Source of the DNA: Gammaproteobacteria bacterium
Lineage (GTDB): Bacteria; Pseudomonadota; Gammaproteobacteria; UBA4575
Reading direction: 5' to 3'
DNA length: 64,000 bases
Assembly: GCA_965220895.1 (NCBI GenBank)
Contig: OZ244850.1
Span: 596,861-660,860 of the forward strand
Position numbers and translations under genes: made by a program. Below are positions 5,098-54,897 of the stretch, in pieces. Under the pieces are notes generated by a model. That model made no database searches and was not told the DNA's origin. It was given only the letters and a program-made list of their open reading frames with translations. The stretch's first letter is position 1. Every line of letters starts with the position of its first letter.

Positions 5098-5496
5098 ATG
5101 GCAGTATCCATACTCATCGTCACACATGGCAGCCTGGGGCATGAGCTGCTTGTAACGGCTGAATCCATGCTTGACGCCCCGCTCCCTCTGGTTTGCAGGG
5201 CACTTTCCGTGACCGATGCCAGCAATGCTGATGAACTGCTGTCCACGGCCCGAGAGCTCTGTGCCGAGATCGGCCAGGGAGACGGGGTACTCGTCCTGAC
5301 AGACATATTTGGTTCAACACCAAGCAACATCTGCAACAAACTGAATGTATCTGAAGATGTGCGCGTGCTTGCCGGACTCAGTCTGCCCATGCTGATTCGT
5401 ACCATGAACTATCCGGACCTGAGTCTGGACAACCTTGCAGAGAAGGCCCTGAGCGGTGCACACGACGGCATTGTGGACTGCAGTCCGAAGAGATAA
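5098..5496 (+). CDS. PTS EIIA component, mannose/fructose family
   Basis: ILIVTHGSLGHELL with the phosphorylatable His of the EIIA-Man fold. 132 aa, in PTS-Ntr context. Confidence 0.75.
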   Translation: MAVSILIVTHGSLGHELLVTAESMLDAPLPLVCRALSVTDASNADELLSTARELCAEIGQGDGVLVLTDIFGSTPSNICNKLNVSEDVRVLAGLSLPMLIRTMNYPDLSLDNLAEKALSGAHDGIVDCSPKR

Positions 5497-5795: not shown

Positions 5796-7526
5796 ATGGC
5801 ACTGATTATTTCCGGGATCGATGTATCCAAAGGCGTTGCCATAGGGAACGTGCACCTGCTCGATCGTGGCGCACCCGAAGTATTTGAGCACAAACTAAAA
5901 AAGGACGAAATCAAACCGGAAGTCGAACGTTTCCAGAATGCCGTCGATGAAGCCAGCAACCACCTGCGCGGCATACGTGACACCATTCCCAAAGACACAT
6001 CCTCGGATGTTGCCGCATTTATCGATTCACATATCCTCATGCTCAAGGACTCCATGCTTCGCAAAGTGCCGGCCGGAATCATTCGCAAACAACGCTGCAA
6101 TGCCGAATGGGCGCTGAAAATACAGCATGACAAACTGATTTCCACTTTTGAACAGATGGAAGACGATTATCTGCGCACCCGTGTCAATGATGTCGGGCAC
6201 GTGATCAACCTGATTCAGCAAATCCTGAAAGACCGGAAGTACACAGTGCAGATCGATGCGCAACCTCTGAAAGGCCGCATCATCGTGGCCGATGACCTCA
6301 CTCCCGCAGACACCGTTTTGATGCAGACCCAGAGCATTGCAGGCTTTATCACTGAACTGGGCGGGCCTCTTTCCCACACCGCGATTTTGGCCCGCAGTCT
6401 GGGAATTCCTGCCGTGGTCGGCGTTCAAGGTGCACGCTCACTTCTGCGACAGGAAGAACAGATCATCATTGATGGCAGCAGTGGCATGGTGCTGGCGGGT
6501 GCAGACCAGAAAACGATTCGCAGCTACCGAATGAGACAGCGCAAGGAAAAGGAAGCGCGACGCAAGTTGCGGGCTTTGCGCGATGTCTCGGCCAAGACAC
6601 GCGATGGCCGGCGAATCAGCCTGCAGGCCAACATCGAGCTGGCCGAAGACATGATTGCACTGAGGCAGTCTGGAGCAGATGGCGTGGGACTCTACCGCAC
6701 AGAATTTCTCTATATCGACCGTGAAGAACCGGCAGACGAAGCTGAACAGCTGAATGCCTACCGGAAAATCATTCGTGCACTGAAAGGCAAACCCTTGACT
6801 ATCCGCACTCTGGACCTGGGTGCTGAGAAGGAATTTGATCCCCATTTCCAGGGACCACTGACGCAAAACCCCGCATTGGGGTTGCGTGCGATTCGCAGGT
6901 CCCTCAAGGACATCGACCTGTTCAAACAACAGTTGCGGGCAATATTGCGAGCTTCTTCCTACGGACCGGTCCGCATTCTGTTGCCCATGGTTACAAGCCA
7001 TGCCGAGCTGGTTCAGTCCTTATCCATCCTGGAACAAGCCAAGCAGGAACTGGAGGGCGGGCAACACTCCTATGATCAAAACATCCCGATCGGTGCCATG
7101 ATCGAGGTCCCTGCAGCAGCATTGTCTGCGCATATTTTTGCAAAGCAGCTCAACTTCCTGTCCATCGGCACGAATGACTTGATTCAATACACACTTGCCA
7201 TTGACCGGATTGATGATCAGGTGAACTACCTGTACGACCCATTACACCCCTCCGTGCTGAAATTGGTCGACCTGACCCTGCGTGCAGGCCGTCATGCAAA
7301 GATTCCCGTTGCAATGTGCGGAGAAATGGCAGGGGACCCGCGCTATACCAGACTGCTGCTTGGTCTGGGACTGCAGGAATTCAGCACACACCCCTCCAAC
7401 CTTCTGGAAATTAAGCAGATTGTCAACCGGAGCAGAATTTCGGAGCTGGAAAAACCTGCGAGGAGAATCCTGAACACAACCCGGCCCGCCAGAATCACTT
7501 CCCTGGTTGATTCACTGAACGACTAG
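5796..7526 (+). CDS. ptsI: phosphoenolpyruvate-protein phosphotransferase (PTS enzyme I), no GAF domain
   Basis: 576 aa. PEP-utilizing enzyme mobile domain plus TIM-barrel PEP-binding domain (NDLIQYTLA, CGEMAGDP). Confidence 0.85.
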   Translation: MALIISGIDVSKGVAIGNVHLLDRGAPEVFEHKLKKDEIKPEVERFQNAVDEASNHLRGIRDTIPKDTSSDVAAFIDSHILMLKDSMLRKVPAGIIRKQRCNAEWALKIQHDKLISTFEQMEDDYLRTRVNDVGHVINLIQQILKDRKYTVQIDAQPLKGRIIVADDLTPADTVLMQTQSIAGFITELGGPLSHTAILARSLGIPAVVGVQGARSLLRQEEQIIIDGSSGMVLAGADQKTIRSYRMRQRKEKEARRKLRALRDVSAKTRDGRRISLQANIELAEDMIALRQSGADGVGLYRTEFLYIDREEPADEAEQLNAYRKIIRALKGKPLTIRTLDLGAEKEFDPHFQGPLTQNPALGLRAIRRSLKDIDLFKQQLRAILRASSYGPVRILLPMVTSHAELVQSLSILEQAKQELEGGQHSYDQNIPIGAMIEVPAAALSAHIFAKQLNFLSIGTNDLIQYTLAIDRIDDQVNYLYDPLHPSVLKLVDLTLRAGRHAKIPVAMCGEMAGDPRYTRLLLGLGLQEFSTHPSNLLEIKQIVNRSRISELEKPARRILNTTRPARITSLVDSLND

Positions 7527-7618
7527 CTCCTCCTGGCCTGGTAATCCGTGCTTTGGCAGGAAACTACCAAAGCAGTTACACTTGCCACCCATCTTCGCAA
7601 CCGTAAACCGTTCAGCCA

Positions 7619-8971
7619 ATGCCTGACTCTGCACTACAGACACAGAACCAGACCCTGAAGGTCATCAGTGAGGCCTTGCAGACTGGAACCATGCAGCGTG
7701 CCAGACGCATGCTGAACGCATTGCATCCAGCCGAGATTGCCAATCTGCTGGAGGCGCTTCCCCATTCACAGCGCATCATTGTCTGGAACATGCTCGACAC
7801 CGATGACGGGGAAATCCTGCTGAATGTTGGCGAAGAAGTCCGCAGCGGCCTGATCAAGCTCATGGGCAGTGAAGCCCTGGTGGCAGCCACCGAAGGTCTG
7901 GAAATCGATGATCTTGCAGACCTGCTTGTTGACCTGCCGCACACGGTTACACGACAAGTGCTGGCCAGCATGGACTATCAGGACCGTCAGCGCCTGGAAG
8001 CCGTATTGTCCTATGATGAAGATACCGCCGGGGGCCTGATGAATACCGACATGGTCACCGTGCGCCATGATGTCACACTGGACGTGGTGCTCCGCTATCT
8101 GCGCGGTCGGGGCACGCTTCCCGATGGAACGGACTCACTGTTTGTCGTCGACCGTTACGAACGCTACATTGGCGCACTTCCGCTCTCAAAAGTGTTGACC
8201 AACAACTCAACGAAAGTGGTACGGGATGTGCTTGAGGACGATGTTCGCGCGTTCGATGCCAACACGGAGGCTTCCCAGGTTGCAAAGGCTTTCGAGGATT
8301 TGGACCTGGTTTCAGCGGCAGTCGTTGATACAGACAACAAGCTGATCGGCCGCATCACTGTGGATGACGTCGTGGATGTCATCCGTGAAGAAGCTGAGCA
8401 TTCGGTGTTCAGCATGGCAGGCTTGTCGGAAGAAGAAGATTTGTTCGCTCCCGTTGTGGCATCTACACAGCGCCGCACCATCTGGCTGGGAGTAAACCTG
8501 TTGACCGCTTTTCTGGCTGCCTGGGTCATCAGCCTGTTTCAGGTGACTTTGGAAAAAATCATCGTGCTGGCAATTCTGATCCCGGTGGTTGCAAGCATGG
8601 GGGGTATAGCCGGTTATCAGACGTTGACCCTGGTGATCCGGGGCCTGGCACTCGGGCAGGTCGGACGCAGTAATTCCAAGCTGTTATTGTTCAAGGAACT
8701 TGCAGTCGGGTTCTTGAACGGGATGACGTGGGCTCTCATCGTTGCGCTGATCGTTGTCCTGTGGTTCAAGGATTTCAAGATGGGTGGAATCATTGCAGTT
8801 GCAACCATGGCAAACCTGTTGTGTGCGGCACTTGCGGGCGTATCAATCCCGGTAATTTTGCGCAACCTCAACATTGATCCGGCACTGGCGGGAGGAGTCA
8901 TCCTGACCACGATCACCGACGTCATCGGGATTTTCGCCTTTCTTGGGCTGGCAACCTGGCTGCTGCTTTAA
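7619..8971 (+). CDS. mgtE: magnesium transporter MgtE
   Basis: N-domain, tandem CBS domains and C-terminal 5-TM MgtE membrane domain. 450 aa. Confidence 0.9.
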   Translation: MPDSALQTQNQTLKVISEALQTGTMQRARRMLNALHPAEIANLLEALPHSQRIIVWNMLDTDDGEILLNVGEEVRSGLIKLMGSEALVAATEGLEIDDLADLLVDLPHTVTRQVLASMDYQDRQRLEAVLSYDEDTAGGLMNTDMVTVRHDVTLDVVLRYLRGRGTLPDGTDSLFVVDRYERYIGALPLSKVLTNNSTKVVRDVLEDDVRAFDANTEASQVAKAFEDLDLVSAAVVDTDNKLIGRITVDDVVDVIREEAEHSVFSMAGLSEEEDLFAPVVASTQRRTIWLGVNLLTAFLAAWVISLFQVTLEKIIVLAILIPVVASMGGIAGYQTLTLVIRGLALGQVGRSNSKLLLFKELAVGFLNGMTWALIVALIVVLWFKDFKMGGIIAVATMANLLCAALAGVSIPVILRNLNIDPALAGGVILTTITDVIGIFAFLGLATWLLL

Positions 8972-35350: not shown

Positions 35351-35743
35351 TCAATCCCCGAAAGTCACCAGGCGATCCGCCTGTATTCCGGCTTCGATGA
35401 GTTGACCCAGGCCCGAGATACGAAAGCCCGGCGCCAGGTTGTTTGCACTCTTGCCATGTCGCCCCATTTCGTCTTCGTCGAGCACCCCGCGACGCTGCGC
35501 AGCGGCCACGCACACCACCAGGTCCAGGCCGTGCTTTTCAGCCAAACCAGACCATTCCAGGGTGAGATTACGGTCATCCTGGGGCGGCACACCCAAGCTC
35601 GTGCCGTTGTTTACTCCGTCGTGGTAGAAAAAGACCCGAAAGATCTCATGCCCTTTGTGCAGGGCAGCTTTTACAAATTGCAGGGCCGAATCAGATGCTT
35701 GGTGCGTGTACGGTCCTTCATTGATCACAATTCCAAACTTCAC
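35351..35743 (-). CDS. dsrE: DsrE
   Basis: TusD/DsrE family with the active-site Cys region (LVVCVAAAQRRG). 130 aa. Confidence 0.85.
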   Translation of the reverse strand: MKFGIVINEGPYTHQASDSALQFVKAALHKGHEIFRVFFYHDGVNNGTSLGVPPQDDRNLTLEWSGLAEKHGLDLVVCVAAAQRRGVLDEDEMGRHGKSANNLAPGFRISGLGQLIEAGIQADRLVTFGD

Positions 35744-43830: not shown

Positions 43831-45756
43831 ATGGAAGAAAAGCTCACTTTTCGACGCTATGAGGATGGCGACCATGTCACGACGCAATGGAGCAAGGACG
43901 TTGTGCAAAATGGGTTGTCCGAGATCTGCCCGACCTACGTTCACCGAACCCCCCCGTGCCAGGCAAGCTGCCCCTCCGGCCACGACATTCGCGGCTGGCT
44001 TTCCATTGTCAGGGGTATAGACAAACCGGTAGGCGACATGACCTGGCAGGAGCATGCCTTTCGCCGCATGACCATGTCCAATCCATTCCCGTCCGTGATG
44101 GGGCGCGTGTGCCCTGCCCCGTGTGAGGACGGCTGCAACCGCAACGAAGTCGAAGAAGCCGTAGGCATCAATGCCGTGGAGCAGTACGTAGGGGACTGGG
44201 CCCTGGACCAGAACCTGACCTATTCGGTACCCGAGCACGACAGCGGCAAGAAGGTTGCGATTGTAGGTGGTGGATGCGCGGGCCTGACTGCGGCCTATTT
44301 CCTACGCCAGAAAGGCCATGCCTGCACAGTTTTTGATGAATATGACCAGCTCGGTGGCATGATGGTATTCGGCATCCCGGGATACCGTACACCGCGTTCC
44401 GTGCTGGAAGGCGAGATCAATCGCATCATCGACATGGGCGTGGAAGTAAAACTGAACACCCGTGTTGGCACGGATGTCTCGGTCGAGGAACTGGAACGTG
44501 ACTACGATGCCGTGTTCTGGGGTATCGGTGCCGTTTCCGGAAAGAAACTGCCGATCCCGGGTGGTGATGCACCGAATGTCGTGGACGGCATGTCCTACCT
44601 GCGCGCATTCAACGAGGATCGCCTGAAATACATCAGCGGCCGAATTCTTGTGATCGGTGCAGGAGATACGGCGATGGACGTGCTGGCGGTAGCCAGGCGC
44701 ATCGGCAACATCAACAGTGTGACCGTGAAAGACCGCCCGGAAAGTGTGATCCTGGGGCACACCGTGCATGATGTGGCAAGTGTGGCCAAGCGTACCGGGG
44801 CGGATGTATGGGTCGTCTACCGGCGTCCGATCTCAGAAGCACCTGCTACCAAGCATGAACTGGACGCGGTGATTCGCGAAGGTGTGGAAATCCATGACGG
44901 GCTGTCCCCTGTTGAGGTGATCCTGGACGAAGACGGCCGGGCCAAGGCGCTGCGAGTGGTTCCCGTGGAACTGGTTGACGGCAAGCTGGAACCCAAGGAA
45001 GGCGAGGAATTTGACATTGAATGTACACTGATCGTCAGCGCGACCGGCCAGACCGGAGACTATACGGGCATCGAGGAATTCGACAACGGGTGGGGCCTGA
45101 TGAATGCAGACAAGGTCTACCAGGTGGAAGGCAAGCCCGGGCATTTTGTCGCCGGCGATGCAGTCAACCCGCACCTGCTGACCACAGCCATCGGCCAGGC
45201 CTCGATTGCCGCAGAAGGCCTGCATCACTACTTGATGGATCAGGAAATCCCTTCACGCCCCAAGATCGACACCCATCATTTCAAGCTTCTGGAAGAGCTG
45301 CGCGTGCGTGAACTTGAGCCTGCGGCTTACGAAATTCACGAAGCCTGGGGTACGGACACGGCAGAATTCGCGATCCACAACTACGAGGACCGTTCAGCCA
45401 CCGAGATCGCGACCCACGACCAGTTGCACATGGCCTATTTCGAGCACGAGCCCATGAATCGCCGTGATGAGGCCAACATCACAGCGGACAAGGTGCTGAA
45501 CAATTTCCAGGAAAGATTTTCCGCCCTAGAAGAACAAAAAACGATCGATGAAGCAGCCCGCTGCATGAGTTGCGGCATGTGCTTCGAGTGTGACAACTGC
45601 GTAGTTTATTGTCCGGAAGACGCCATTTTCCGGGTCAAGAAAGATCAGCGTGCGATGGGCCGTTACGTCGACACCGATTACGACAAGTGCGTGGGCTGTC
45701 ACATCTGTGCCGATGTCTGCCCGAGCGGCTACATCAAGATGGGATTGCACTACTAG
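43831..45756 (+). CDS. dsrL: DsrL, GltD-like NAD(P)H:acceptor oxidoreductase with C-terminal ferredoxin domain
   Basis: N-terminal Cys clusters, FAD/NAD Rossmann motifs (VAIVGGGCAGL, ILVIGAGDTAMD), C-terminal 2x[4Fe-4S] domain (CMSCGMCFECDNC...CVGCHICADVCP). 641 aa. Confidence 0.85.
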   Translation: MEEKLTFRRYEDGDHVTTQWSKDVVQNGLSEICPTYVHRTPPCQASCPSGHDIRGWLSIVRGIDKPVGDMTWQEHAFRRMTMSNPFPSVMGRVCPAPCEDGCNRNEVEEAVGINAVEQYVGDWALDQNLTYSVPEHDSGKKVAIVGGGCAGLTAAYFLRQKGHACTVFDEYDQLGGMMVFGIPGYRTPRSVLEGEINRIIDMGVEVKLNTRVGTDVSVEELERDYDAVFWGIGAVSGKKLPIPGGDAPNVVDGMSYLRAFNEDRLKYISGRILVIGAGDTAMDVLAVARRIGNINSVTVKDRPESVILGHTVHDVASVAKRTGADVWVVYRRPISEAPATKHELDAVIREGVEIHDGLSPVEVILDEDGRAKALRVVPVELVDGKLEPKEGEEFDIECTLIVSATGQTGDYTGIEEFDNGWGLMNADKVYQVEGKPGHFVAGDAVNPHLLTTAIGQASIAAEGLHHYLMDQEIPSRPKIDTHHFKLLEELRVRELEPAAYEIHEAWGTDTAEFAIHNYEDRSATEIATHDQLHMAYFEHEPMNRRDEANITADKVLNNFQERFSALEEQKTIDEAARCMSCGMCFECDNCVVYCPEDAIFRVKKDQRAMGRYVDTDYDKCVGCHICADVCPSGYIKMGLHY

Positions 45757-45817
45757 CTGCAACCATCCAGCAACAGCTGCCCACACAGGCAGCCCTGCCA
45801 GGCGCCAGCAGGCAGTC

Positions 45818-46156
45818 TCAGGCCACGCTTCCGAACCCTTTGTCCACTGCACCGGTGGGTACATGCAGGCCTGCTATCCTGCAACCCTGGGCTACGGGCC
45901 CACCCGGAAACAAGTCGTACAGGTACTTCATTCCGCCTTTGTAGTGGAACTTCTCTTCCAACGCATCATGCAGTTCACGCATGTTGATCATGTTGATGTC
46001 GTGTCTTGAGTAGTACCCCTGCAATGCATGCAGCAGTTCAAAATGGTCATCCGTCAAGGTGATCCCTTCCTCGACCGCAACTTTCTTGGCATCTTCATCG
46101 GACCAGTCGTCTGACATGAAAAACCGTTCGTAGTTATCCGCTTTCTGGACTGTCAT
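45818..46156 (-). CDS. DsrC-family paralog retaining only the penultimate cysteine
   Basis: C-terminus YLYDLFPGGPVAQGCRIAGLHVPTGAVDKGFGSVA. CysB is kept, the terminal CysA is replaced, and the tail is extended. Confidence 0.8.
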   Translation of the reverse strand: MTVQKADNYERFFMSDDWSDEDAKKVAVEEGITLTDDHFELLHALQGYYSRHDINMINMRELHDALEEKFHYKGGMKYLYDLFPGGPVAQGCRIAGLHVPTGAVDKGFGSVA

Positions 46157-46267
46157 GAGGCCTCACCTCCTTGAAGAAAATAACGGTTTCTTGTGCCTGA
46201 ATTGTACCATGCCCGGCATCGTTCTTGAGGGCTGAGCGTTGCCACATGAGACAAGCCTGAAGCATAT

Positions 46268-47692
46268 GTTGTCTTAGCACCACCTATTCCTGAGTGGTAA
46301 GCTACAGGTCCTGCAATGGATTTGATCCGGGTTGTTGTCTTAGCACCACCTATTCCTGAGTGGTAAGCTGCCCGGAGCCATCGAACTTGCAACATGGACG
46401 TTGTCTTAGCACCACCTATTCCTGAGTGGTAAGCTGTTAAAAAGATTTGGCTTGATCACAATGTAGTTGTCTTAGCACCACCTATTCCTGAGTGGTAAGC
46501 TTAGTGTTAATCAATTATGTGCAAGGCTACAGTTGTCTTAGCACCACCTATTCCTGAGTGGTAAGCTAATGGCGAGAATGAACGTAAAAGACCTGAAGTT
46601 GTCTTAGCACCACCTATTCCTGAGTGGTAAGCTATTGCTGAACGAAAAAGGCAAGAGCGCTGAGTTGTCTTAGCACCACCTATTCCTGAGTGGTAAGCTT
46701 ATTCAAATCATAGGTTGAACACACAGAACGTTGTCTTAGCACCACCTATTCCTGAGTGGTAAGCTACGCGTATGGCAGGATCGCATGACGGTAAAGTTGT
46801 CTTAGCACCACCTATTCCTGAGTGGTAAGCTCTCATCTTGGATACGCCGATGATATTGTCAGGTTGTCTTAGCACCACCTATTCCTGAGTGGTAAGCTCT
46901 CTGCGACCTTGAGGATCGCCATGATTGCGTTGTCTTAGCACCACCTATTCCTGAGTGGTAAGCTCGATGCCATGCGCCACGGCTTTCTGCTTCGGTTGTC
47001 TTAGCACCACCTATTCCTGAGTGGTAAGCTCTCATCTTGGATACGCCGATGATATTGTCAGGTTGTCTTAGCACCACCTATTCCTGAGTGGTAAGCTTTA
47101 ACTCTCGACCGCCAAGATGGTTTGGCAAGTTGTCTTAGCACCACCTATTCCTGAGTGGTAAGCTCACGACCGGCCACGTTGATTACCTCTGTAAGTTGTC
47201 TTAGCACCACCTATTCCTGAGTGGTAAGCTTAAATGCACTGTAATAATACGACCCTTAGCGTTGTCTTAGCACCACCTATTCCTGAGTGGTAAGCTATTG
47301 CCAAGAATATTCAGGAGGTTAATGAAGTTGTCTTAGCACCACCTATTCCTGAGTGGTAAGCTGTTCCATTACTTCACACCTTTTCCACTGAAGTTGTCTT
47401 AGCACCACCTATTCCTGAGTGGTAAGCTGTATTCATAATGAGGAAGTTGTAGATAATAGTTGTCTTAGCACCACCTATTCCTGAGTGGTAAGCTTTTACA
47501 GTTGATTGTATCTCAGTTTTATCAGTTGTCTTAGCACCACCTATTCCTGAGTGGTAAGCTACGCTGGGTAAAAATACCACCCTGGTCCGTGTTGTCTTAG
47601 CACCACCTATTCCTGAGTGGTAAGCTAGTTGCTGAAAAAGGCATCAAACAACTTACGTTGTCTTAGCACCACCTATTCCTGAGTGGTAAGCT
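46268..47692 (+). CRISPR. CRISPR array, 22 x 36-bp repeats (GTTGTCTTAGCACCACCTATTCCTGAGTGGTAAGCT), 21 spacers of 30-31 bp
   Basis: Perfectly periodic 66/67-bp units read directly. Adjacent to cas2-cas1-cas9 (type II-C). The repeat 3' end TGGTAAGCT resembles an extended -10 box, as in Neisseria II-C repeats, so crRNAs are probably made from the plus strand. Confidence 0.95.
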
Positions 47693-47729
47693 ACCGACGT
47701 GATAAACTGTTGATTTGGCGAGTAAATTG

Positions 47730-47755
47730 GCTGGTTCCCATGGAGGGGAACCAGC
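47730..47755 (-). terminator. hairpin at the cas2 stop (GCTGGTTCCC/GGGAACCAGC), possible terminator/insulator between the cas operon and the array
   Basis: 10-bp perfect stem with a 6-nt loop overlapping the cas2 stop codon. The downstream U-tract is weak. Confidence 0.3.
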
Positions 47756-48090
47756 TAAAACAAGTAAAATTGGTTGGGTTCTTGGTTGGTTTTTCTCCTT
47801 TTTTGAGCATAATATCGCCTCATATTTGAGAACTGCTTATCAGTAATACACAGAACATCAACCTTGCCGCCCGGTGGTAACAAAGGCACGATTCTGTGAC
47901 TTATCGCGTTCGCCTTCTCGCCTGAGGAGCAGTATTTTAGATACACAGAAAACTGTGACATCTCGAATCCGAGGTCAAGAAGGCTGTTTCGGAACTTGGC
48001 TGCCTGTTTGCGTTCCTTCTTGGTAACCACCGGTAAATCGAACATCACGAATAGCCACATGATGCGGTATGGACTAAGGCCATCACTCAT
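47755..48090 (-). CDS. cas2: CRISPR-associated endoribonuclease Cas2
   Basis: About 100 aa, Cas2 fold pattern (RIMWLFVMFDLPV...). 4-nt overlap with cas1. Confidence 0.85.
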   Translation of the reverse strand: MSDGLSPYRIMWLFVMFDLPVVTKKERKQAAKFRNSLLDLGFEMSQFSVYLKYCSSGEKANAISHRIVPLLPPGGKVDVLCITDKQFSNMRRYYAQKRRKTNQEPNQFYLF

Positions 48091-48992
48091 GGCAGTGAAT
48101 CCAAGGGTGCAGGCAAAGGAGGCAGTACGTCAGCCATCACCTCTCCTTGGCAGTACTGGGAGAAAGCGCGACACATCCTGACTGCAACAAGCGACAGAGG
48201 AGAAAAACCTTCGGCCATCGGCAGTGGGAGTGCGGGTAAAGATGCTAGTCGCAACTTGCCCTCAGCGTTGAGCTCCTCGGAATAAGCTTTCCTCGACTGC
48301 CATACAACAAGATCAGCTATGGGACGAAATGGCTCAAGGAGGTCATCGACCAGATTCAAGGGGTTTTGCGGATTCTTGTGGTGTACACTGAAACTTGGAT
48401 GCAACCCAGCACCGGTAACGCCACGCGCTACACAGGCCCGTAACACGGTATAGGCGTAGTTCAGGGCAGCATTCAATCCCGAAGCCGTGCGGTCACGCCG
48501 GAAGTCTTTACCGAAAAGACGTTGCCAATAGGCACGGGCCGCCTGCGCCTCAATGTTGTCCGGATCCCCCGACCTTACTTTGCGGATCATGCGCAGAAGA
48601 TCCCTATTGGCCTCCCCGGCCCGACTCAGCACCTCTGCCTGATTGTCGATTTTCGTTCGAACCAATCGCTGCCAGACACGCTTTCGGCGAGGCTGAGACA
48701 GTTCGGTTTGCGCCCTCATCACGCTGAATTGTCTTACAGCACCCTGCACCGGCAAAGTCCAAGTGCTTGGCAGATAGTTTTTTCCGCACACCACTAACGG
48801 GATGTTTCGCTGCGCCAACTGATCCAGTAATTCGCTGGAAATGGCGCAACCAGGAACAGAAATCAGCACCACACCTATGTCGTCCAGCGGCACTTGACCC
48901 ATTTGTTCCCCACGCTGGTGAACTTGCAGGAAACCCCTTGACTTTTTCAGCCAATATCCCGGATCAGTAATCTCGACAACCTGGCCCCCCAT
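48087..48992 (-). CDS. cas1: CRISPR-associated integrase Cas1 (type II)
   Basis: 301 aa with type II Cas1 pattern (VPLDDIGVVLI...LLDQLAQRNIPLVV...). Directly downstream of cas9. Confidence 0.9.
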   Translation of the reverse strand: MGGQVVEITDPGYWLKKSRGFLQVHQRGEQMGQVPLDDIGVVLISVPGCAISSELLDQLAQRNIPLVVCGKNYLPSTWTLPVQGAVRQFSVMRAQTELSQPRRKRVWQRLVRTKIDNQAEVLSRAGEANRDLLRMIRKVRSGDPDNIEAQAARAYWQRLFGKDFRRDRTASGLNAALNYAYTVLRACVARGVTGAGLHPSFSVHHKNPQNPLNLVDDLLEPFRPIADLVVWQSRKAYSEELNAEGKLRLASLPALPLPMAEGFSPLSLVAVRMCRAFSQYCQGEVMADVLPPLPAPLDSLP

Positions 48993-49004
48993 ACGGCATC
49001 ACTG

Positions 49005-52000
49005 TCATGCAGTTCGACGAGGAGAACGGCGGTGCTCATGACTCACCTGTCCCGTGGGGCTTATATGCACTTTCTTGGCATTTCGTTTCTTGAGCGGATT
49101 GGAAGCAACGCACAAGTACTTAAAGGGATCTTCCTTGTTTCTTTCTCTGCTATCCACATTCGCCTCATGAAGCTCCGCAAATGACATTTGGCCGTTTTGA
49201 CTGACTTTTTGCAATCGATACAACTTTTTTTCACCGTCATTTTCAATTTCCACACAATCGTTGATTTGCAACCGCATCACCAGCTTCGCTGCAGGGTGGG
49301 GCCTGGCTGTCTGGCCAGGTTGGAAGTCATGCTGGTTGGCTTCAAACCGGGAAATCACCACGCCTTCCCACCTGCCCGCTTTCTTATGCACTGACGGGAA
49401 CGCATATATCTCAATACCCCAGTTGCTGTCGCCCTTGTAGGCCTTATAGGCGCTTCCTTCTGCATCTAGAATAGGAATAACCGACAGGGTTTCAGTCTGT
49501 CGCAAACTGCGGATTCCCTTTTGGCGCGCCAGGTCCTCTATTGCCTTCGCACCCGCCTCCGCTGTGTCGAATGCACACCTGAACTCCTCCCTCAGGCGGG
49601 CATCCCTGATTCGTTCAATGTTCTTCCGCTTCGTGAAGAATGAAATCGGTTTGCGGGTGACAACTTTGTACAAGTTCCGCTTTTCCTTCTCCCCGACAAG
49701 CCCATAGGCTGTGTCGTTATGCAGTTGTCCGTCTGTGGTTATCCCCCGCTGTAGTGTCTTGTGCCGTACCTTGTGCGAAACGACAATGTTCCGGACGGTA
49801 TCCACGACATCAGCCCGGAACCCTTCCCAAGGATCAATAGCACTTTTCCCGCCATTGACACGCGGGAACAGCCTGCCCATGGGCTGACTGCCAATTTGCT
49901 CGATTTCCTCAAGCTTCCGTGCCTCAGTCGCCACCTTTTGCAGCATGCTTCGGCTTGTCATGCCGATCACGATCGCATCCACGGCGTGATGACGATGGTC
50001 GTCGCGGTTTTTTCTCCCAGCGCTCTCCCCGCCATCCAGCAAAACACTGTTCAGTCCCCAGTGCCAACGCAGCAGGCTGGTCAGACGGCCGGTCAGGACA
50101 TCAATCTTGTCGATAGGACAAATTCTTTCGAGGTATTCGCGGGCAAGCCGACCAATGTAGCGAGTATCGTTGAGATGGCGGCTGGTGAAATCGGCACCTT
50201 CGCCTTGCTGCCAGATCTTCATTGCATCCTTCTGAAACCGCCACAGTTTGTAATCGGGGAGCTGCTCAGCGCGCGCAGCAATCTCGCCCCAGTCATAGCC
50301 ATTGGGGCTGTCTCCGAAGGCCTCATAGGGAGTCCGGTTGCCCTTGTCGCGGTTTGCCTTGCGCGTGCAAATCACCTTGTTTGCGCGGCTGTCATCCAAC
50401 GACCGACTAAATGGGATTAGGTGTTCAACTTGGGTGCGCTCACTGAAAAGGTCGGTGATTCCGATCTTGACGCCGGAGAAGGGGCAGCAACGTCCATTGG
50501 CGTCTTTGCTCAACTCTTTCCACAGAGACAGGCGCAAACGATTATCGGCGTTGAGTTGCTGACCAAGTTCCAGAAGCTTCTCGTTAAATCCCTGGTTTCT
50601 GTCCTGATTTTCCTTCTGTGCCCTTTCGATCTCCCGGCGCTTTAATTCGCCCGCCGGTAACTCCCGGCCCAATTCAATGGCTATGGAGAACGGTCGCCCG
50701 TACCGTTCAATCAATTCATTGACCACAAGGCGAATCTGGTTCAACGCGATATGCACCGTGGGGTTAGTTATACCGCCCCACCGGGTCTTTTCGTCGTCTT
50801 CAGCTCTTCCGGTCCCGGGAATGATGTGCCGCCCATCGCGAAATGCTTCTCCATAGTAGGGAAGCTTGTCCAGCAATTGGTATTTTCCGTCATCCCCTTT
50901 TTTGCGAAACGGATCCACGAATCCATTAACTTCCAGAGCCACGGACGCGGCTGCGGCGCTTTGCAATGGCAGGGAAAATTCCCCAGTATCCGGATCCACA
51001 ATTCCATCTCGCATCTTCGCCAACATGAGTTGCGCTGCCTTGCTGGAGATTTGTGCACTATCGTCCTTTAGTTGCGCATTGAGGCAATTGTTCGCAACGT
51101 AATCGGAGAGTTCGAAGTGTTCCCGAATGTACGTGCGGAGATCCGCATCATCCTGCGCGCCGTCCGGTGGCGGCAGATGCCCGGCGCCAGCAAGCCGTTT
51201 GCGATCGCGTTCCTGTTGATCGGGTGTGCCATTCAGTAGAACGTCGATAAACTCATCCTGCTTCCCCAGCGGCCAAGCGTGCCAGTCTTCTCCGATGCAG
51301 TCTTCATGCTGCATGAGGTTGCTGGTCAGATTGCCATTGAAGCCCTTGCGCTTCTGCGTCTCGAAATTAAATCTGAAGTCGCCTTCCGCATAGTTGAGCT
51401 TCTTCAAGACCCCCTTCATCTTGCCAAAAGTGACCTGACCGCTCTTTGTGACCACCCTCTCTAGAAGCCGCACTATCTCGTCCCTGGCGTCAGGATAGTC
51501 CCTTACCCGTTTGTTCTGGTAGCCGTCCCACCATTCCAAGCTATTGACTTCCTGAAAGATGCGATAGCACTGAAAACTTGGCATGGCCCGGAAAGTTCGA
51601 TCTTCACTCGGCAGATACGTGCACTTCCCCCGCTTCTGAGGTTTCAGGGGGCGCTGGTGGAAAATCGCCTGATGTACACGCTGCCGAGCGTCTTCAGTCA
51701 TCAACTTTGGATGATGTAGCGACTGGGCTTCCCAAATCTTGTTGAACTCGTCTTCGTATAGTTCGCGTGTTGGGTACACCTCGTACAGTTTTCCGTCAGC
51801 ACCCGCGCCCGGTCGAGCTCGCGTCGGAATACGTTTACGGTGACGCCGGTACAAAAATGAGCCATAGGTCAGATCCTCTCGTTCGGCCAGATCCCGTAAA
51901 GCCCGGTTCCGAGCTTCCGCCTCCGCCCTGCGAACCTGCTTTTTTTCTTCTCTCGACAGCTTCTTGTACTCTTCTCGCGCTAGTTCCGGATCAAGCAAAC

Positions 52001-52472
52001 CCATCTGTTGCAACAGCAATCGCGCCGAACTCGAAACCTTTCCACCGGTCACCTCTTCACTTCGGTCCTTCCGGTTGCTCTTGAAGCCTCGGCGCTGATT
52101 GATATGGAACAATGCACGACCGACTTCACATGGCTTCAGCGGTTGAGTCAAGGCCTGCGCTCGCAAGGCCAGCGGGTTCAAGGATTGCAACGCCTTGCGC
52201 TCTTTCTTTGATTCCGGGAACAGCCCTGCCTGGGTCAACTCATGCAACAAGAACTTCTTGCGCTGCTTGAAGCGGTCACGACGCCGACGCGCCGACCGCT
52301 TTTCCCGCCGGGTCGCCGCGAGCGTGGCTTTGCTCTTGTTGTCCCTTCCTTCGGCGAATATGCGCGACCCTGCGGCTGTGATGGCGCAGGGACTCCCGTT
52401 ATCGTCCAGTTCAAGGACACTCCAGCCAAGCGAATTTGTCCCCACATCAAGACCAAAGCGGTATCTCGACAT
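49005..52472 (-). CDS. cas9: Cas9 (type II-C, 1155 aa)
   Basis: RuvC-I GLDVGTNSLGW at the N-terminus, arginine-rich bridge helix, HNH motif (VEHLIPFSRS...NKVICTRKAN), RuvC-II/III. No csn2 or cas4, so subtype II-C. Confidence 0.9.
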   Translation of the reverse strand: MSRYRFGLDVGTNSLGWSVLELDDNGSPCAITAAGSRIFAEGRDNKSKATLAATRREKRSARRRRDRFKQRKKFLLHELTQAGLFPESKKERKALQSLNPLALRAQALTQPLKPCEVGRALFHINQRRGFKSNRKDRSEEVTGGKVSSSARLLLQQMGLLDPELAREEYKKLSREEKKQVRRAEAEARNRALRDLAEREDLTYGSFLYRRHRKRIPTRARPGAGADGKLYEVYPTRELYEDEFNKIWEAQSLHHPKLMTEDARQRVHQAIFHQRPLKPQKRGKCTYLPSEDRTFRAMPSFQCYRIFQEVNSLEWWDGYQNKRVRDYPDARDEIVRLLERVVTKSGQVTFGKMKGVLKKLNYAEGDFRFNFETQKRKGFNGNLTSNLMQHEDCIGEDWHAWPLGKQDEFIDVLLNGTPDQQERDRKRLAGAGHLPPPDGAQDDADLRTYIREHFELSDYVANNCLNAQLKDDSAQISSKAAQLMLAKMRDGIVDPDTGEFSLPLQSAAAASVALEVNGFVDPFRKKGDDGKYQLLDKLPYYGEAFRDGRHIIPGTGRAEDDEKTRWGGITNPTVHIALNQIRLVVNELIERYGRPFSIAIELGRELPAGELKRREIERAQKENQDRNQGFNEKLLELGQQLNADNRLRLSLWKELSKDANGRCCPFSGVKIGITDLFSERTQVEHLIPFSRSLDDSRANKVICTRKANRDKGNRTPYEAFGDSPNGYDWGEIAARAEQLPDYKLWRFQKDAMKIWQQGEGADFTSRHLNDTRYIGRLAREYLERICPIDKIDVLTGRLTSLLRWHWGLNSVLLDGGESAGRKNRDDHRHHAVDAIVIGMTSRSMLQKVATEARKLEEIEQIGSQPMGRLFPRVNGGKSAIDPWEGFRADVVDTVRNIVVSHKVRHKTLQRGITTDGQLHNDTAYGLVGEKEKRNLYKVVTRKPISFFTKRKNIERIRDARLREEFRCAFDTAEAGAKAIEDLARQKGIRSLRQTETLSVIPILDAEGSAYKAYKGDSNWGIEIYAFPSVHKKAGRWEGVVISRFEANQHDFQPGQTARPHPAAKLVMRLQINDCVEIENDGEKKLYRLQKVSQNGQMSFAELHEANVDSRERNKEDPFKYLCVASNPLKKRNAKKVHISPTGQVSHEHRRSPRRTA

Positions 52473-52565
52473 CTCCAGCGCCTACTCCCAATCCCGGGCA
52501 CATGCGGATACAGGAAACCAGTGAACCCGCCGATTGTGCATTTTAATCATGCACACTCCTCCTCA

Positions 52566-52662
52566 AACGAAAAGGGCGACCCGCAGGTCACCCTCCCAAT
52601 TTTGTGAATTCTCACTTGTTAATCTAAGCCGAAGCAAGAACCACCTATTCCTGAGTAATAAT
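52566..52662 (-). ncRNA. candidate tracrRNA
   Basis: On the minus strand there is a TATACT -10 box. It is followed by an anti-repeat with 16 nt perfectly complementary to repeat positions 14-29 (ACUCAGGAAUAGGUGG) and a bulged lower stem complementary to repeat nt 1-11. A GUGA-GAAU-UCAC hairpin and then a GGGUGACC-UGCG-GGUCGCCC + UUUUCGUUU intrinsic terminator follow, ending about 90 nt upstream of cas9. Confidence 0.55.
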
Positions 52663-52779
52663 GTTTTCAGTATACCTTAGTCTTTGCGTATATTTCGACT
52701 CTCAGAGTTGTCTCTCTGCATGTGCATGTGCATGTGCAAGTGGCAGTGCAATTCTCAGCCATGCCTTTGCAGATGGCCA

Positions 52780-53256
52780 TCACGCCGGGCCCAATATCTT
52801 CTCCATTCTTTCGTGACGCACGGATGAAAGCTCGCTCTTGCCGGTACCGCTCACGGCATAGCCGTTCCTCTTGTAGAACTCCACAGCACCCTCACGGGCA
52901 AGCAACCAGCAAGTCCTCACCTGGTGAGTGCGCGCGAACCGTTCAAGCCTTTCGAGAATCGAACGACCGATACCCCTGTGCCGATAGTCGGCATGGACGG
53001 CCATGTAGCGCACCCGTGCCGTGCCGTCCGCTTCCATGTGCACCCTGCCCACCCCGACGAGGGACTGCCCGTCGTAGGCTGCGATATGAAATGCGGTATC
53101 CTCCTGCGAGTCCCTTTCGCTGCCACGAGGCATGTGCAGCGGTTCACGCAGTTGCGCCCACCGGAACGAAAAGTATTCTGCGAATTCTCCAGGGGCAAGC
53201 GGCGACCGGTAGTGAATCAAGTGATCCTCATGCAAACACAACCCAGGTCGTGGCAA
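52780..53256 (-). CDS. GNAT-family N-acetyltransferase
   Basis: Acetyl-CoA-binding motif RHRGIGRSILERLERFA. 158 aa. Confidence 0.8.
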   Translation of the reverse strand: MPRPGLCLHEDHLIHYRSPLAPGEFAEYFSFRWAQLREPLHMPRGSERDSQEDTAFHIAAYDGQSLVGVGRVHMEADGTARVRYMAVHADYRHRGIGRSILERLERFARTHQVRTCWLLAREGAVEFYKRNGYAVSGTGKSELSSVRHERMEKILGPA

Positions 53257-53851
53257 TGTACTTCACTCCCTGCTCCAGCAGGGTGCCGCGATGCTCATGT
53301 GTCCAGAATGGCGGGAACAGGATCAGTTTTCCGGCTTCGGGCCTGACCTTGACCCCCTGAAACAGAAATTCCGTTTCTCCTCCCGGTCCTGCGACATCAT
53401 TCAGATACCAGATCGCCACCAGTTGACGGTGGCTGAAATCATGGCTGCCGCCATCAACGTGCCAGTGATAGTACTCGCCCGCCCGGGTCCTCTGGATCCC
53501 GTACCCCATATCCTTGAAAGGACCCTTGAAAAACGGATAGCGTTCACGAAATTCCCGCACGGCCAGACCCAGTGACCGGAAAAAGGTCCGGTCCGTATCC
53601 TTCCAGTGTGCCTTGCCGCTGACGACCAGGTCAGTGGATTTCTTGATGCTGGCGTCCCTGTCGGCAAGCTGACCAATGCGCCCTTCGTACTGTTCTTCCT
53701 CGGCCCGCTCAAAGTGCTCGATAACCTCGGCGCAGAAACCCGCAGGAAGGGAGCCGGCCTGTTCGAAAATAAAGCTGCCGGGCTTGATTTCGCGGATGGT
53801 TTGAAGGGGCTGTTCAGCCCTGCGGTCTGCGCGCCCCCGGGTCATGGTCAA
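53228..53851 (-). CDS. prolyl 4-hydroxylase-like 2OG-Fe(II) oxygenase
   Basis: HxD...H motif (HVDGGSH ... HEHRG) in a P4Hc-like fold. 207 aa. Start overlaps the upstream gene stop (ATGA). Confidence 0.8.
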   Translation of the reverse strand: MTMTRGRADRRAEQPLQTIREIKPGSFIFEQAGSLPAGFCAEVIEHFERAEEEQYEGRIGQLADRDASIKKSTDLVVSGKAHWKDTDRTFFRSLGLAVREFRERYPFFKGPFKDMGYGIQRTRAGEYYHWHVDGGSHDFSHRQLVAIWYLNDVAGPGGETEFLFQGVKVRPEAGKLILFPPFWTHEHRGTLLEQGVKYIATTWVVFA

Positions 53852-54897
53852 AGAGGGTTTTCTACGACAATCTTTTCCAGCCTGGACAGGCTCGCATCAT
53901 CCTGCTTCTCATAGCATGCAAGCATATCACCTGCCACTGACGTCCAGTGACGTACGCCTTTTGCAACCAGCTTTTTCAAAGGTTTCAGATTGTCCGTGTC
54001 CACCCATGCCTGGTAGGCTTTCTGAAAGCCCGGGAACAACTCCTTGCGCATGGCTGTGAGGTTGGCCGCATAAAAATGCAACGAGGCGGGATTGTAGTTT
54101 TCGATCAGTCCCGGCAAGGTCGACAGGCAGTCGGCCAGCAGGTCCTTGACGGCCCTGGCCATGATTTCTGCCCGGGAGCGTGGCAGGTTCATGACCATTT
54201 CGCGCCACCCATCCCCCAGCTCCCTGGAAGCAACAAATTCACCGATCTCATGCAGGGTGACGGCTTCGAGCTCGTTTTCCGTCATTCGGTCCAGCGCGTA
54301 CGAAACCCCCTTGTCAAACTCATAGAACGACAATGCCTTGGCCATGGCGTTTTCATTCTTGTGCCACTGCCATTCCTGGTATTTTTCCCAGAGCAGCCAA
54401 CTCAGCGATTCCCTGCGAATGAAAACGTTCTTGCCCTGGGTCATTGCCGGCGGTGCGGTCAGGTCCCTCGCGCATTCATCCGCGGCAACGTACATCGTGA
54501 AATCGTTGTAGACCTCTCTGGATTCAAGTCGTGCCAGAAAGAAGTTCGGGGTTGCGCGAAGACCGATACCGCCGCTGTACACATAGTGCTTGGGCACCAG
54601 TACCGCGTTGATGTTATCGGTGTCAAACGGGTCAAATTCCTCGCCATCGATCCGCAACGGCAAAAAACTCTCCTCTTCCAGCGTCTCCCACAGGTGTTCG
54701 CGATCCTGCACCCAGTCTCCCACCTCCTCCTTGGGCAGGGCTTCATCAAACGTGTAGCCGTTTTCCCAGCGAAAGTACTCGCGCATCTTCAGGAGATAGA
54801 CGCACAGCGTATAGTTGGCGGCGTTGCGCGCATCCGAGATGTCGCAGTTCTTCTGCACGGTCGTGCAAAGAAGTTCGGTTTGGGTGGTCATGGGCAC
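53848..54897 (-). CDS. hypothetical protein (349 aa), first gene of the unknown-P4H-GNAT operon
   Basis: Long ORF with coding-like composition. Translationally coupled to the P4H-like gene. No recognisable motif. Confidence 0.6.
   Translation of the reverse strand: MPMTTQTELLCTTVQKNCDISDARNAANYTLCVYLLKMREYFRWENGYTFDEALPKEEVGDWVQDREHLWETLEEESFLPLRIDGEEFDPFDTDNINAVLVPKHYVYSGGIGLRATPNFFLARLESREVYNDFTMYVAADECARDLTAPPAMTQGKNVFIRRESLSWLLWEKYQEWQWHKNENAMAKALSFYEFDKGVSYALDRMTENELEAVTLHEIGEFVASRELGDGWREMVMNLPRSRAEIMARAVKDLLADCLSTLPGLIENYNPASLHFYAANLTAMRKELFPGFQKAYQAWVDTDNLKPLKKLVAKGVRHWTSVAGDMLACYEKQDDASLSRLEKIVVENPL

Follow-up and report, generated by a model that had tools for sequence, protein, structure and literature searches.

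The window, by which we mean the whole 64-kb stretch of DNA that was analysed, contains a complete CRISPR-Cas locus with its cas genes on the minus strand. The gene cas9 (49005..52472, minus strand) encodes a protein of 1155 aa that matches TIGR01865 (E 2e-177), cas1 (48087-48992, minus strand) matches the NMENI-type model TIGR03639 (E 9e-74), and cas2 lies at 47755-48090 (minus strand). Neither csn2 nor cas4 is present in the locus, which has cas9, cas1, and cas2 only, and it is therefore assigned to type II-C. The CRISPR array (46268..47692, plus strand) consists of 22 identical 36-nt repeats, GTTGTCTTAGCACCACCTATTCCTGAGTGGTAAGCT in the plus-strand reading, and 21 spacers of 30-31 nt. One repeat-spacer-repeat block of the array is duplicated exactly (46796-46898 and 46995-47097), with spacer CTCATCTTGGATACGCCGATGATATTGTCAG occurring twice. 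Protospacers were sought as PAM-side evidence of polarity; the whole array found no match in a phage collection, and three 22-nt spacer seeds found none in IMG/VR, where neither the core of the tracrRNA nor that of the repeat turned up on phage sequences either.

Several smaller features border these genes. Directly after the cas2 stop codon, between the cas operon and the array, lies a 10-bp hairpin, GCUGGUUCCC-CUCCAU-GGGAACCAGC (47746-47721, minus strand), and comparable hairpins follow cas2 in three of the related loci described below (L009, L011, and L014). Two related loci, L011 and L012, carry a gene for an AAA+/nSTAND-type ATPase between cas9 and cas1 (6506-7681 and 6512-7708, respectively) that is absent from the window. 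On the other side of cas9, a GNAT acetyltransferase gene ends at 52780, and the intergenic region upstream of cas9, 307 nt in length, holds the putative tracrRNA gene that is the subject of this analysis. A microsatellite, (TGCACA) x 3.5 (52738-52717, minus strand), is found between the GNAT stop codon and the predicted tracrRNA promoter.

Putative tracrRNA gene upstream of cas9

The predicted tracrRNA transcript (52565..52662, minus strand) is about 98 nt long and would be read from the same strand as cas9, 94 nt upstream of it and outside the array. An earlier note, made from the sequence alone, had placed a tracrRNA here and reported 16 nt of perfect complementarity between its anti-repeat and the CRISPR repeat. 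The 16-mer itself, ACTCAGGAATAGGTGG (52656-52641, minus strand), is confirmed and is the sole copy outside the 22 array repeats, with 0.01 chance matches expected, but the pairing proves longer than was claimed. An upper stem of 22 bp is formed by 52640..52661 (minus strand) and repeat nt 12-33: 17 Watson-Crick pairs involve repeat nt 12-28, after which the stem continues through nt 29-33 by way of two G.U pairs. The lower-stem part of the anti-repeat, GCU-U-AGA-U-UAAC (52618..52629, minus strand), pairs with repeat nt 1-11. Here the G.U wobble and the 1-nt bulge of the earlier description are both found, the latter being a U on the tracr side, but a U.U mismatch between repeat U8 and tracr U52626 had been missed. 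The pair formed by repeat nt 8 is U-A or G-C in outgroups and U.U in the clade of the window. Cofolding of the repeat with the tracrRNA, a check that had been proposed with the original claim, leaves repeat nt 1-7 and 9-33 paired with the tracrRNA and yields a lower stem, a bulge, an upper stem, an AA junction, a nexus, and a terminator.

The strength of this pairing was compared with that of all other sites by running RNAduplex on the repeat against every 50-nt segment of both strands of the whole 64-kb window (about 25,000 segments). The best partner of the plus-sense repeat RNA is 52616-52665 (minus strand) at -42.7 kcal/mol, 6 sd from the background mean of -16.2 kcal/mol (sd 4.2). The next unrelated plus-sense site, 54186-54250 (minus strand), reaches -35.4 kcal/mol, while the best site for a minus-sense repeat, 35486-35560 (minus strand), reaches -36.7 kcal/mol. 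Both were considered as a second anti-repeat and rejected: their pairing is heavily interrupted, no scaffold follows, and neither is matched by the covariance model described below. No better anti-repeat is thus found on either strand of the window, a possibility that had been raised against the original assignment. A scaRNA, in which a repeat-like segment pairs with the tracrRNA, was likewise rejected, since the segment is complementary to the repeat and not similar to it. The fold of the tracrRNA has a z-score of -3.1. Rfam covariance models run over 45500-54000 with E values up to 10 gave no relevant match, the two that appeared being chance matches inside cas genes; tracrRNAs are too diverse for this result to count against the call.

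The gene appears to have its own promoter. The -10 box TATACT (52669..52674, minus strand) is separated by an 18-nt spacer from a putative -35-like hexamer, TCGAAA (52693..52698, minus strand), which is weak and not clearly conserved in relatives. Because this promoter-like arrangement ends at 52669, transcription likely starts near 52662, 7 nt after the -10 box. In the clade of eight loci to which the window belongs, the box is TATACT in seven and TATAAT in one, always at the same distance (alignment A1), and pairs of loci agree on average at 96% of its positions, whereas its flanks are 36-46% identical. Other relatives have TATAAT, TATACT, or TACCAT.

Downstream of the anti-repeat, the cofold places an AA junction (52617-52616) followed by the nexus hairpin GUGA-GAAU-UCAC (52615-52604, minus strand), a combination that is a general pattern of type II guide RNAs (PMC6546382). 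The segment comprising the junction and the nexus is invariant in 11 loci; L015 has GCGA/UCGC in the nexus, a compensatory change, and in L003 this position is taken by a longer hairpin. After a 9-nt linker, the RNA is predicted to end at an intrinsic terminator (52565..52594, minus strand) made up of a hairpin at 52594-52573, with a 9-bp GC-rich stem, AGGGUGACC/GGUCGCCCU, and the loop UGCG, and a U tract, UUUCGUUU, within which the 3' end of the transcript would fall. The TATACT box, the GUGA/UCAC hairpin, and the intrinsic terminator named in the earlier note are thus all present. A simple terminator scan did not list the tracrRNA terminator, even when run on a narrow region, likely because G.U pairs allow the stem to run on into the U tract. 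The terminator call accordingly rests on folding and covariation: in alignment A2, described below, 98.8% of the cells of the terminator helix (helix 4) are paired, and one pair is compensatory, GAGCGACC/GGUCGCUC in L002.

A further stem-loop, UGUGCAU-GAUUAAA-AUGCACA (52555-52535, minus strand), lies in the cas9 leader, 15 nt past the tracrRNA terminator. A stem with different letters is kept at the same place in L006 (GAGUGCGCAU/AUGCGCACUC), L013, L007, and L005. It may act as a 5' UTR element of cas9 or serve as a binding site.

Homologous RNAs, covariation, and crRNA polarity

Sixteen related loci (L001 to L016) were collected from a reference-genome scan, a metagenome pattern scan, and context look-ups. 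A homologous RNA is present in 13 of the 16 (L001-L008, L010, L011, L013, L015, and L016), and 12 of these RNAs adjoin a related cas9 whose product is 38-88% identical to that of the window; the remaining one, that of L004, comes from a short contig that showed no cas9. The position of the gene varies within this single Cas9 family, in which four placements are found. In L001, L005, L006, L007, L008, L010, and L013 (Cas9 69-88% identical to that of the window) it is upstream of cas9 on the same strand. It is upstream on the opposite strand in L002 (5918-5822, minus strand; Cas9 61%), L015 (3940-3844, minus strand; 63%), and the Pseudobdellovibrio MAG locus L003 (3347-3245, minus strand; 38%). 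In L016 (9637-9540, minus strand; 70%) it lies past the far end of the array in the crRNA sense, and in L011 (9386-9486, plus strand; 66%) it is fused to the last repeat. These shifting positions fit earlier proposals of recruited repeats and gene relocation (PMC3737331, PMC6546382).

No tracrRNA was found within the flanks fetched for L009 (within 3 kb), L012, and L014. Some relatives look degraded: L006 has a single repeat (~5143-5178), L014, with no tracrRNA in its flanks, has four repeats and a truncated one (7890-8160), and L009 lacks a tracrRNA within 3 kb of its intact array. The tracrRNA copy of L011 contains a run of 14 G at the place of the nexus, which may be an assembly artefact.

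A covariance model, R1, was built from eleven of the homologous RNAs, with L004, L011, and L003 left out of the build. It finds a single match in the window, 52562-52664 (minus strand; 123 bits, E 1e-25), and recovers all three of the RNAs left out. Covariation was then counted on the cofold structure in alignment A2, in which each repeat is joined to its own tracrRNA in nine loci. Standard pairs make up 93.8% of the cells (90.9% in the lower stem, helix 1), and 11 pairs are changed on both sides, compared with 3.0 +/- 1.2 in shuffles and 0-1 when the structure is slid by 1-3 columns. The upper stem accounts for eight of the compensatory pairs, and the lower stem, the nexus (in L015), and the terminator (in L002) for one each. 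Nine pairs are thus inter-molecular with changes on both sides across the nine loci, again with 0-1 in the slid controls; an upper-stem example is the repeat segment CCUGAGUG and its partner CACUCAGG, in place of which L002 has CCCAAGUG and CACUUGGG.

Taken together, the homologous RNAs and their compensatory changes give good sequence-level support to both the tracrRNA call and its polarity. We consider it highly probable that 52662-52565 (minus strand) encodes the tracrRNA of a type II-C CRISPR-Cas9 system like that of Neisseria and that its UUCG segment is an enlarged main bulge. The claim of a tracrRNA on the cas strand upstream of cas9 is upheld by the strongest anti-repeat in the 64 kb, 12 homologues beside related cas9 genes, and covariation. 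At the level of sequence the RNA has every feature expected of a tracrRNA; its expression, Cas9 binding, and role in interference are predicted, with indirect support from the conserved -10 box. We propose that a sigma-70 promoter of its own (TATACT) drives its transcription, which would stop at the intrinsic terminator just upstream of cas9. Sequence and covariation show its 5' half to be the anti-repeat, which pairs with the first 33 nt of the repeat in plus-strand crRNAs and gives a hybrid with an 11-bp lower stem, a one-sided main bulge, and a 22-bp upper stem, while the AA junction, the 4-bp nexus hairpin, and the terminator would together form the Cas9-binding scaffold.

As the tracrRNA is read from the minus strand, the crRNAs must be plus sense. 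Each repeat of the window ends in TGGTAAGCT, an extended -10-like motif, and T28, G29, T31, A32, and T36 (TGnTAnnnT) are invariant in 12 different related repeats, in which positions 30, 33, and 34 vary. The N. meningitidis 8013 repeat has the same 3' end, AGTGCTACAAT, as the repeat of L009 (PMC12477760). Transcription of crRNAs in N. meningitidis begins at the 6th nt of each spacer, driven by promoters embedded in the repeats, and the system can do without RNase III (PMC5965381, PMC12477760). By analogy, the crRNAs of the window probably start from the TGGTAAGCT extended -10 element, a few nt into the next spacer. The plus-strand polarity and repeat-embedded extended -10 element suggested earlier thus gain support from the N. 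meningitidis analogy and from the conservation of TGnTAnnnT.

The main bulge and rival explanations

In the minimum-energy duplex, the main bulge UCUUGCUUCG (52630..52639, minus strand) consists of 10 nt that are unpaired on the tracr side only. A main bulge between the lower and upper stems is general in type II guide RNAs (PMC6546382, PMC3737331, PMC7606464), and in all the homologues U-rich unpaired tracr bases separate the upper-stem GGYGG from the lower stem. They read UU in L004, UUCU in L002, UUUU(C) in L015, UUUUCA in L016, and UCUUGCUUCG in the window as well as in the seven loci closest to it. What had been read as an 11-nt insertion splitting the anti-repeat is therefore replaced by a one-sided 10-nt bulge, where relatives carry 2-6 nt and only 6 nt are lineage-specific. 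Compared with L002 and L015, the clade of the window has 6 extra nt, which MAFFT places as GCTTCG directly before GCTTAG and which correspond to GCUUCG at 52635-52630. The simplest origin for this insertion would be a tandem duplication of the adjacent GCTTAG with one substitution. In a neighbour-joining tree of Cas9, the eight loci with the insertion are monophyletic (78% support, 50 bootstraps), so the insertion arose once, and the upstream same-strand position of the gene probably did too. We therefore envisage a main bulge that was ancestrally 4-6 nt long and would have reached 10 nt by a single GCUUCG insertion in this Cas9 clade. Having a bulge in the hybrid is nothing unusual, but the size of this one, the fact that it is one-sided, and its stepwise growth within a single family set it apart. 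The earlier description of the bulge as atypical can apply only to the first two of these and not to the presence of a main bulge, which is standard (PMC6546382).

The bulge is also strictly conserved. None of its 10 columns varies in the eight clade loci, whose Cas9 proteins are 69-88% identical, while identity within the clade is 36% from the -10 box to the anti-repeat core and 62% in the 3' tail. An invariant bulge amid diverged flanks points to purifying selection on its sequence, which is not merely tolerated. As this invariance exceeds what is expected of a tolerated insertion, the bulge could have a specific role, such as a Cas9 contact, a hairpin, or an alternative fold. Comparison of the Cas9 sequences revealed no clade-specific insertion or substitution block, only two deletions of 1-2 residues and one fixed substitution.

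The duplication creates two alternative registers for pairing with AGC(A) of the repeat, as well as a possible GC(UUCG)GC hairpin spanning 52635-52628. The earlier note had proposed such a hairpin, and its sequence is literally there: a canonical C(UUCG)G tetraloop extended by a further G-C pair. One might therefore suppose that it is a real mini-hairpin extruded from the repeat:anti-repeat duplex as a three-way junction and serving as a functional module, for example as a clade-specific Cas9 contact, as protection of the bulge from RNases, or as a block that positions RNase III. The invariance of the segment in the eight loci is consistent with this, as is U52627C in L001 and L005, which weakens the competing GCU:AGC pairing and leaves the hairpin intact. 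We nevertheless consider a functional mini-hairpin unlikely. By nearest-neighbour energies, which do not speak to the behaviour of the bulge inside Cas9, the duplex with a single open bulge has -37.0 kcal/mol, the two-bulge register -33.2 kcal/mol, and the hairpin-extruded forms -31.0 to -33.8 kcal/mol; the isolated hairpin contributes -0.9 kcal/mol, and every model with the hairpin falls 3-4 kcal/mol short of the open bulge. Moreover, the 3' GC of the hairpin is needed as the partner of repeat G10 and C11, pairs that are invariant in all nine loci. With this energy deficit and this competing demand on its 3' strand, the hairpin is possible but not favoured. Nor is there covariation within it, the segment being invariant, and it is accompanied by no clade-specific insertion or substitution set in Cas9. 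In the duplex, these models suggest, the bases of the bulge most likely stay unpaired or fold no more than transiently.

The bulge might instead be conserved for what it does before the crRNA arrives. In the crRNA-free tracrRNA, a long-range helix between GYGG-UUYUYRC(UU) (52644-52632) and (AA)GYGAGAA-UUCRC (52617-52604, both minus strand) would hide the nexus until repeat pairing frees it, a conformational switch. In the clade of the window, L016, L002, and L015, the free RNA has this helix in its minimum-energy fold, which beats the nexus conformer by 3.6-5.9 kcal/mol. The helix is kept despite differing bulges (UUCUUGC, UUUUCAC, and UUUUCGC), with one pair being G.U, A-U, or G-C and another U-A versus C-G, and only 1.6-5% of random bulges fold as well. 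Set against this, there are just four distinct sequence types, most of the helix is missing from L004, repeat pairing and the nexus hairpin also constrain the covarying positions, and free guide RNAs are often predicted to misfold. In 6-40% of trials, shuffles that preserve composition fold equally well, which puts most of the effect down to the U-richness of the bulge. We accordingly hold the switch to be distinctly unlikely, and slightly less likely still its extension to the enlarged bulge, according to which the bulge would be the switch arm, with one copy of the duplicated GCUU serving the self-helix and the other the repeat pairing. A different objection would be that the whole element is a decayed orphan repeat, unexpressed or non-functional, with the real tracrRNA elsewhere or with crRNAs made from the minus strand. 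Anti-repeats are indeed thought to derive from repeats (PMC3737331, PMC6546382), and the gene is placed elsewhere in relatives, beyond the array in L011 and L016 and on the opposite strand in L002, L015, and L003. This reading is highly improbable: a promoter, an AA junction with nexus, and a terminator are conserved, with compensatory changes, beside cas9 genes whose products are 38-88% identical; the model has no second match in the window; the rival sites are heavily interrupted and without a scaffold; and the post-cas2 hairpin separates the cas operon from the array. The preferred reading is a tracrRNA with an enlarged main bulge.

Comparison with known type II guide RNAs

Briner et al. 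(2014), as cited by Faure et al. (2018) (PMC6546382), give the general modules of type II guide RNAs as a lower stem, a main bulge, an upper stem, an AA junction, a nexus, and a Rho-independent terminator. The predicted RNA has all these modules in the canonical order, and the first, spacer-adjacent base of the repeat is paired, as is general. For type II-C hybrids a median of -39.4 kcal/mol is reported (PMC6546382), not far from the -42.7 kcal/mol of the window. The hybrid of the window departs from the general pattern in that the first pair is G-C instead of the common G.U, the G.U pair being at repeat position 4, and in that the main bulge comes after 11 bp, is wholly on the tracr side, and measures 10 nt in the clade. 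When compared with C(UUCG)G tetraloop hairpins, the UUCG segment has an identical loop and closing pair and one more G-C pair, but its stem of only 2 bp is marginal in context, where the crRNA repeat competes for its 3' strand.

While the finding leaves the knowledge of type II systems unchanged, it provides a confident guide-RNA scaffold, and hence an sgRNA design, for an uncharacterised type II-C Cas9 family of ~1,155 aa from environmental Gammaproteobacteria and related metagenome-assembled genomes. An sgRNA built on this scaffold would read guide + GUUGUCUUAGCACCACC-GAAA-GGUGGUUCUUGCUUCGGCUUAGAUUAACAAGUGAGAAUUCACAAAAUUGGGAGGGUGACCUGCGGGUCGCCCUUUU. The family further offers a natural series for one scaffold, with main bulges of 2, 4, 5, 6, and 10 nt and four tracrRNA gene positions, from which the role of the main bulge and the mobility of tracrRNA genes could be studied.

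The most similar well-studied system is that of N. meningitidis. The hybrids of both have a central bulge (PMC3737331) and are followed by AAG and the scaffold. Both loci have the layout cas9-cas1-cas2-array with no fourth cas gene, and in both the repeats are 36 nt long, start with GTTGT, and end in TGnTAnnnT, with the crRNA sense opposite to that of the cas genes. Unlike in N. meningitidis, the tracrRNA gene of the window is upstream of cas9, and its scaffold is shorter, with a minimal 4-bp nexus and a single terminator hairpin. The bulge of the window is one-sided (0 x 10 nt), whereas that of the Nme hybrid is a roughly symmetric internal loop. Nme1 and Nme2 are also the closest solved Cas9 structures, though remote ones (E about 1e-52 to 1e-54), with the HNH region as the best-aligned stretch.
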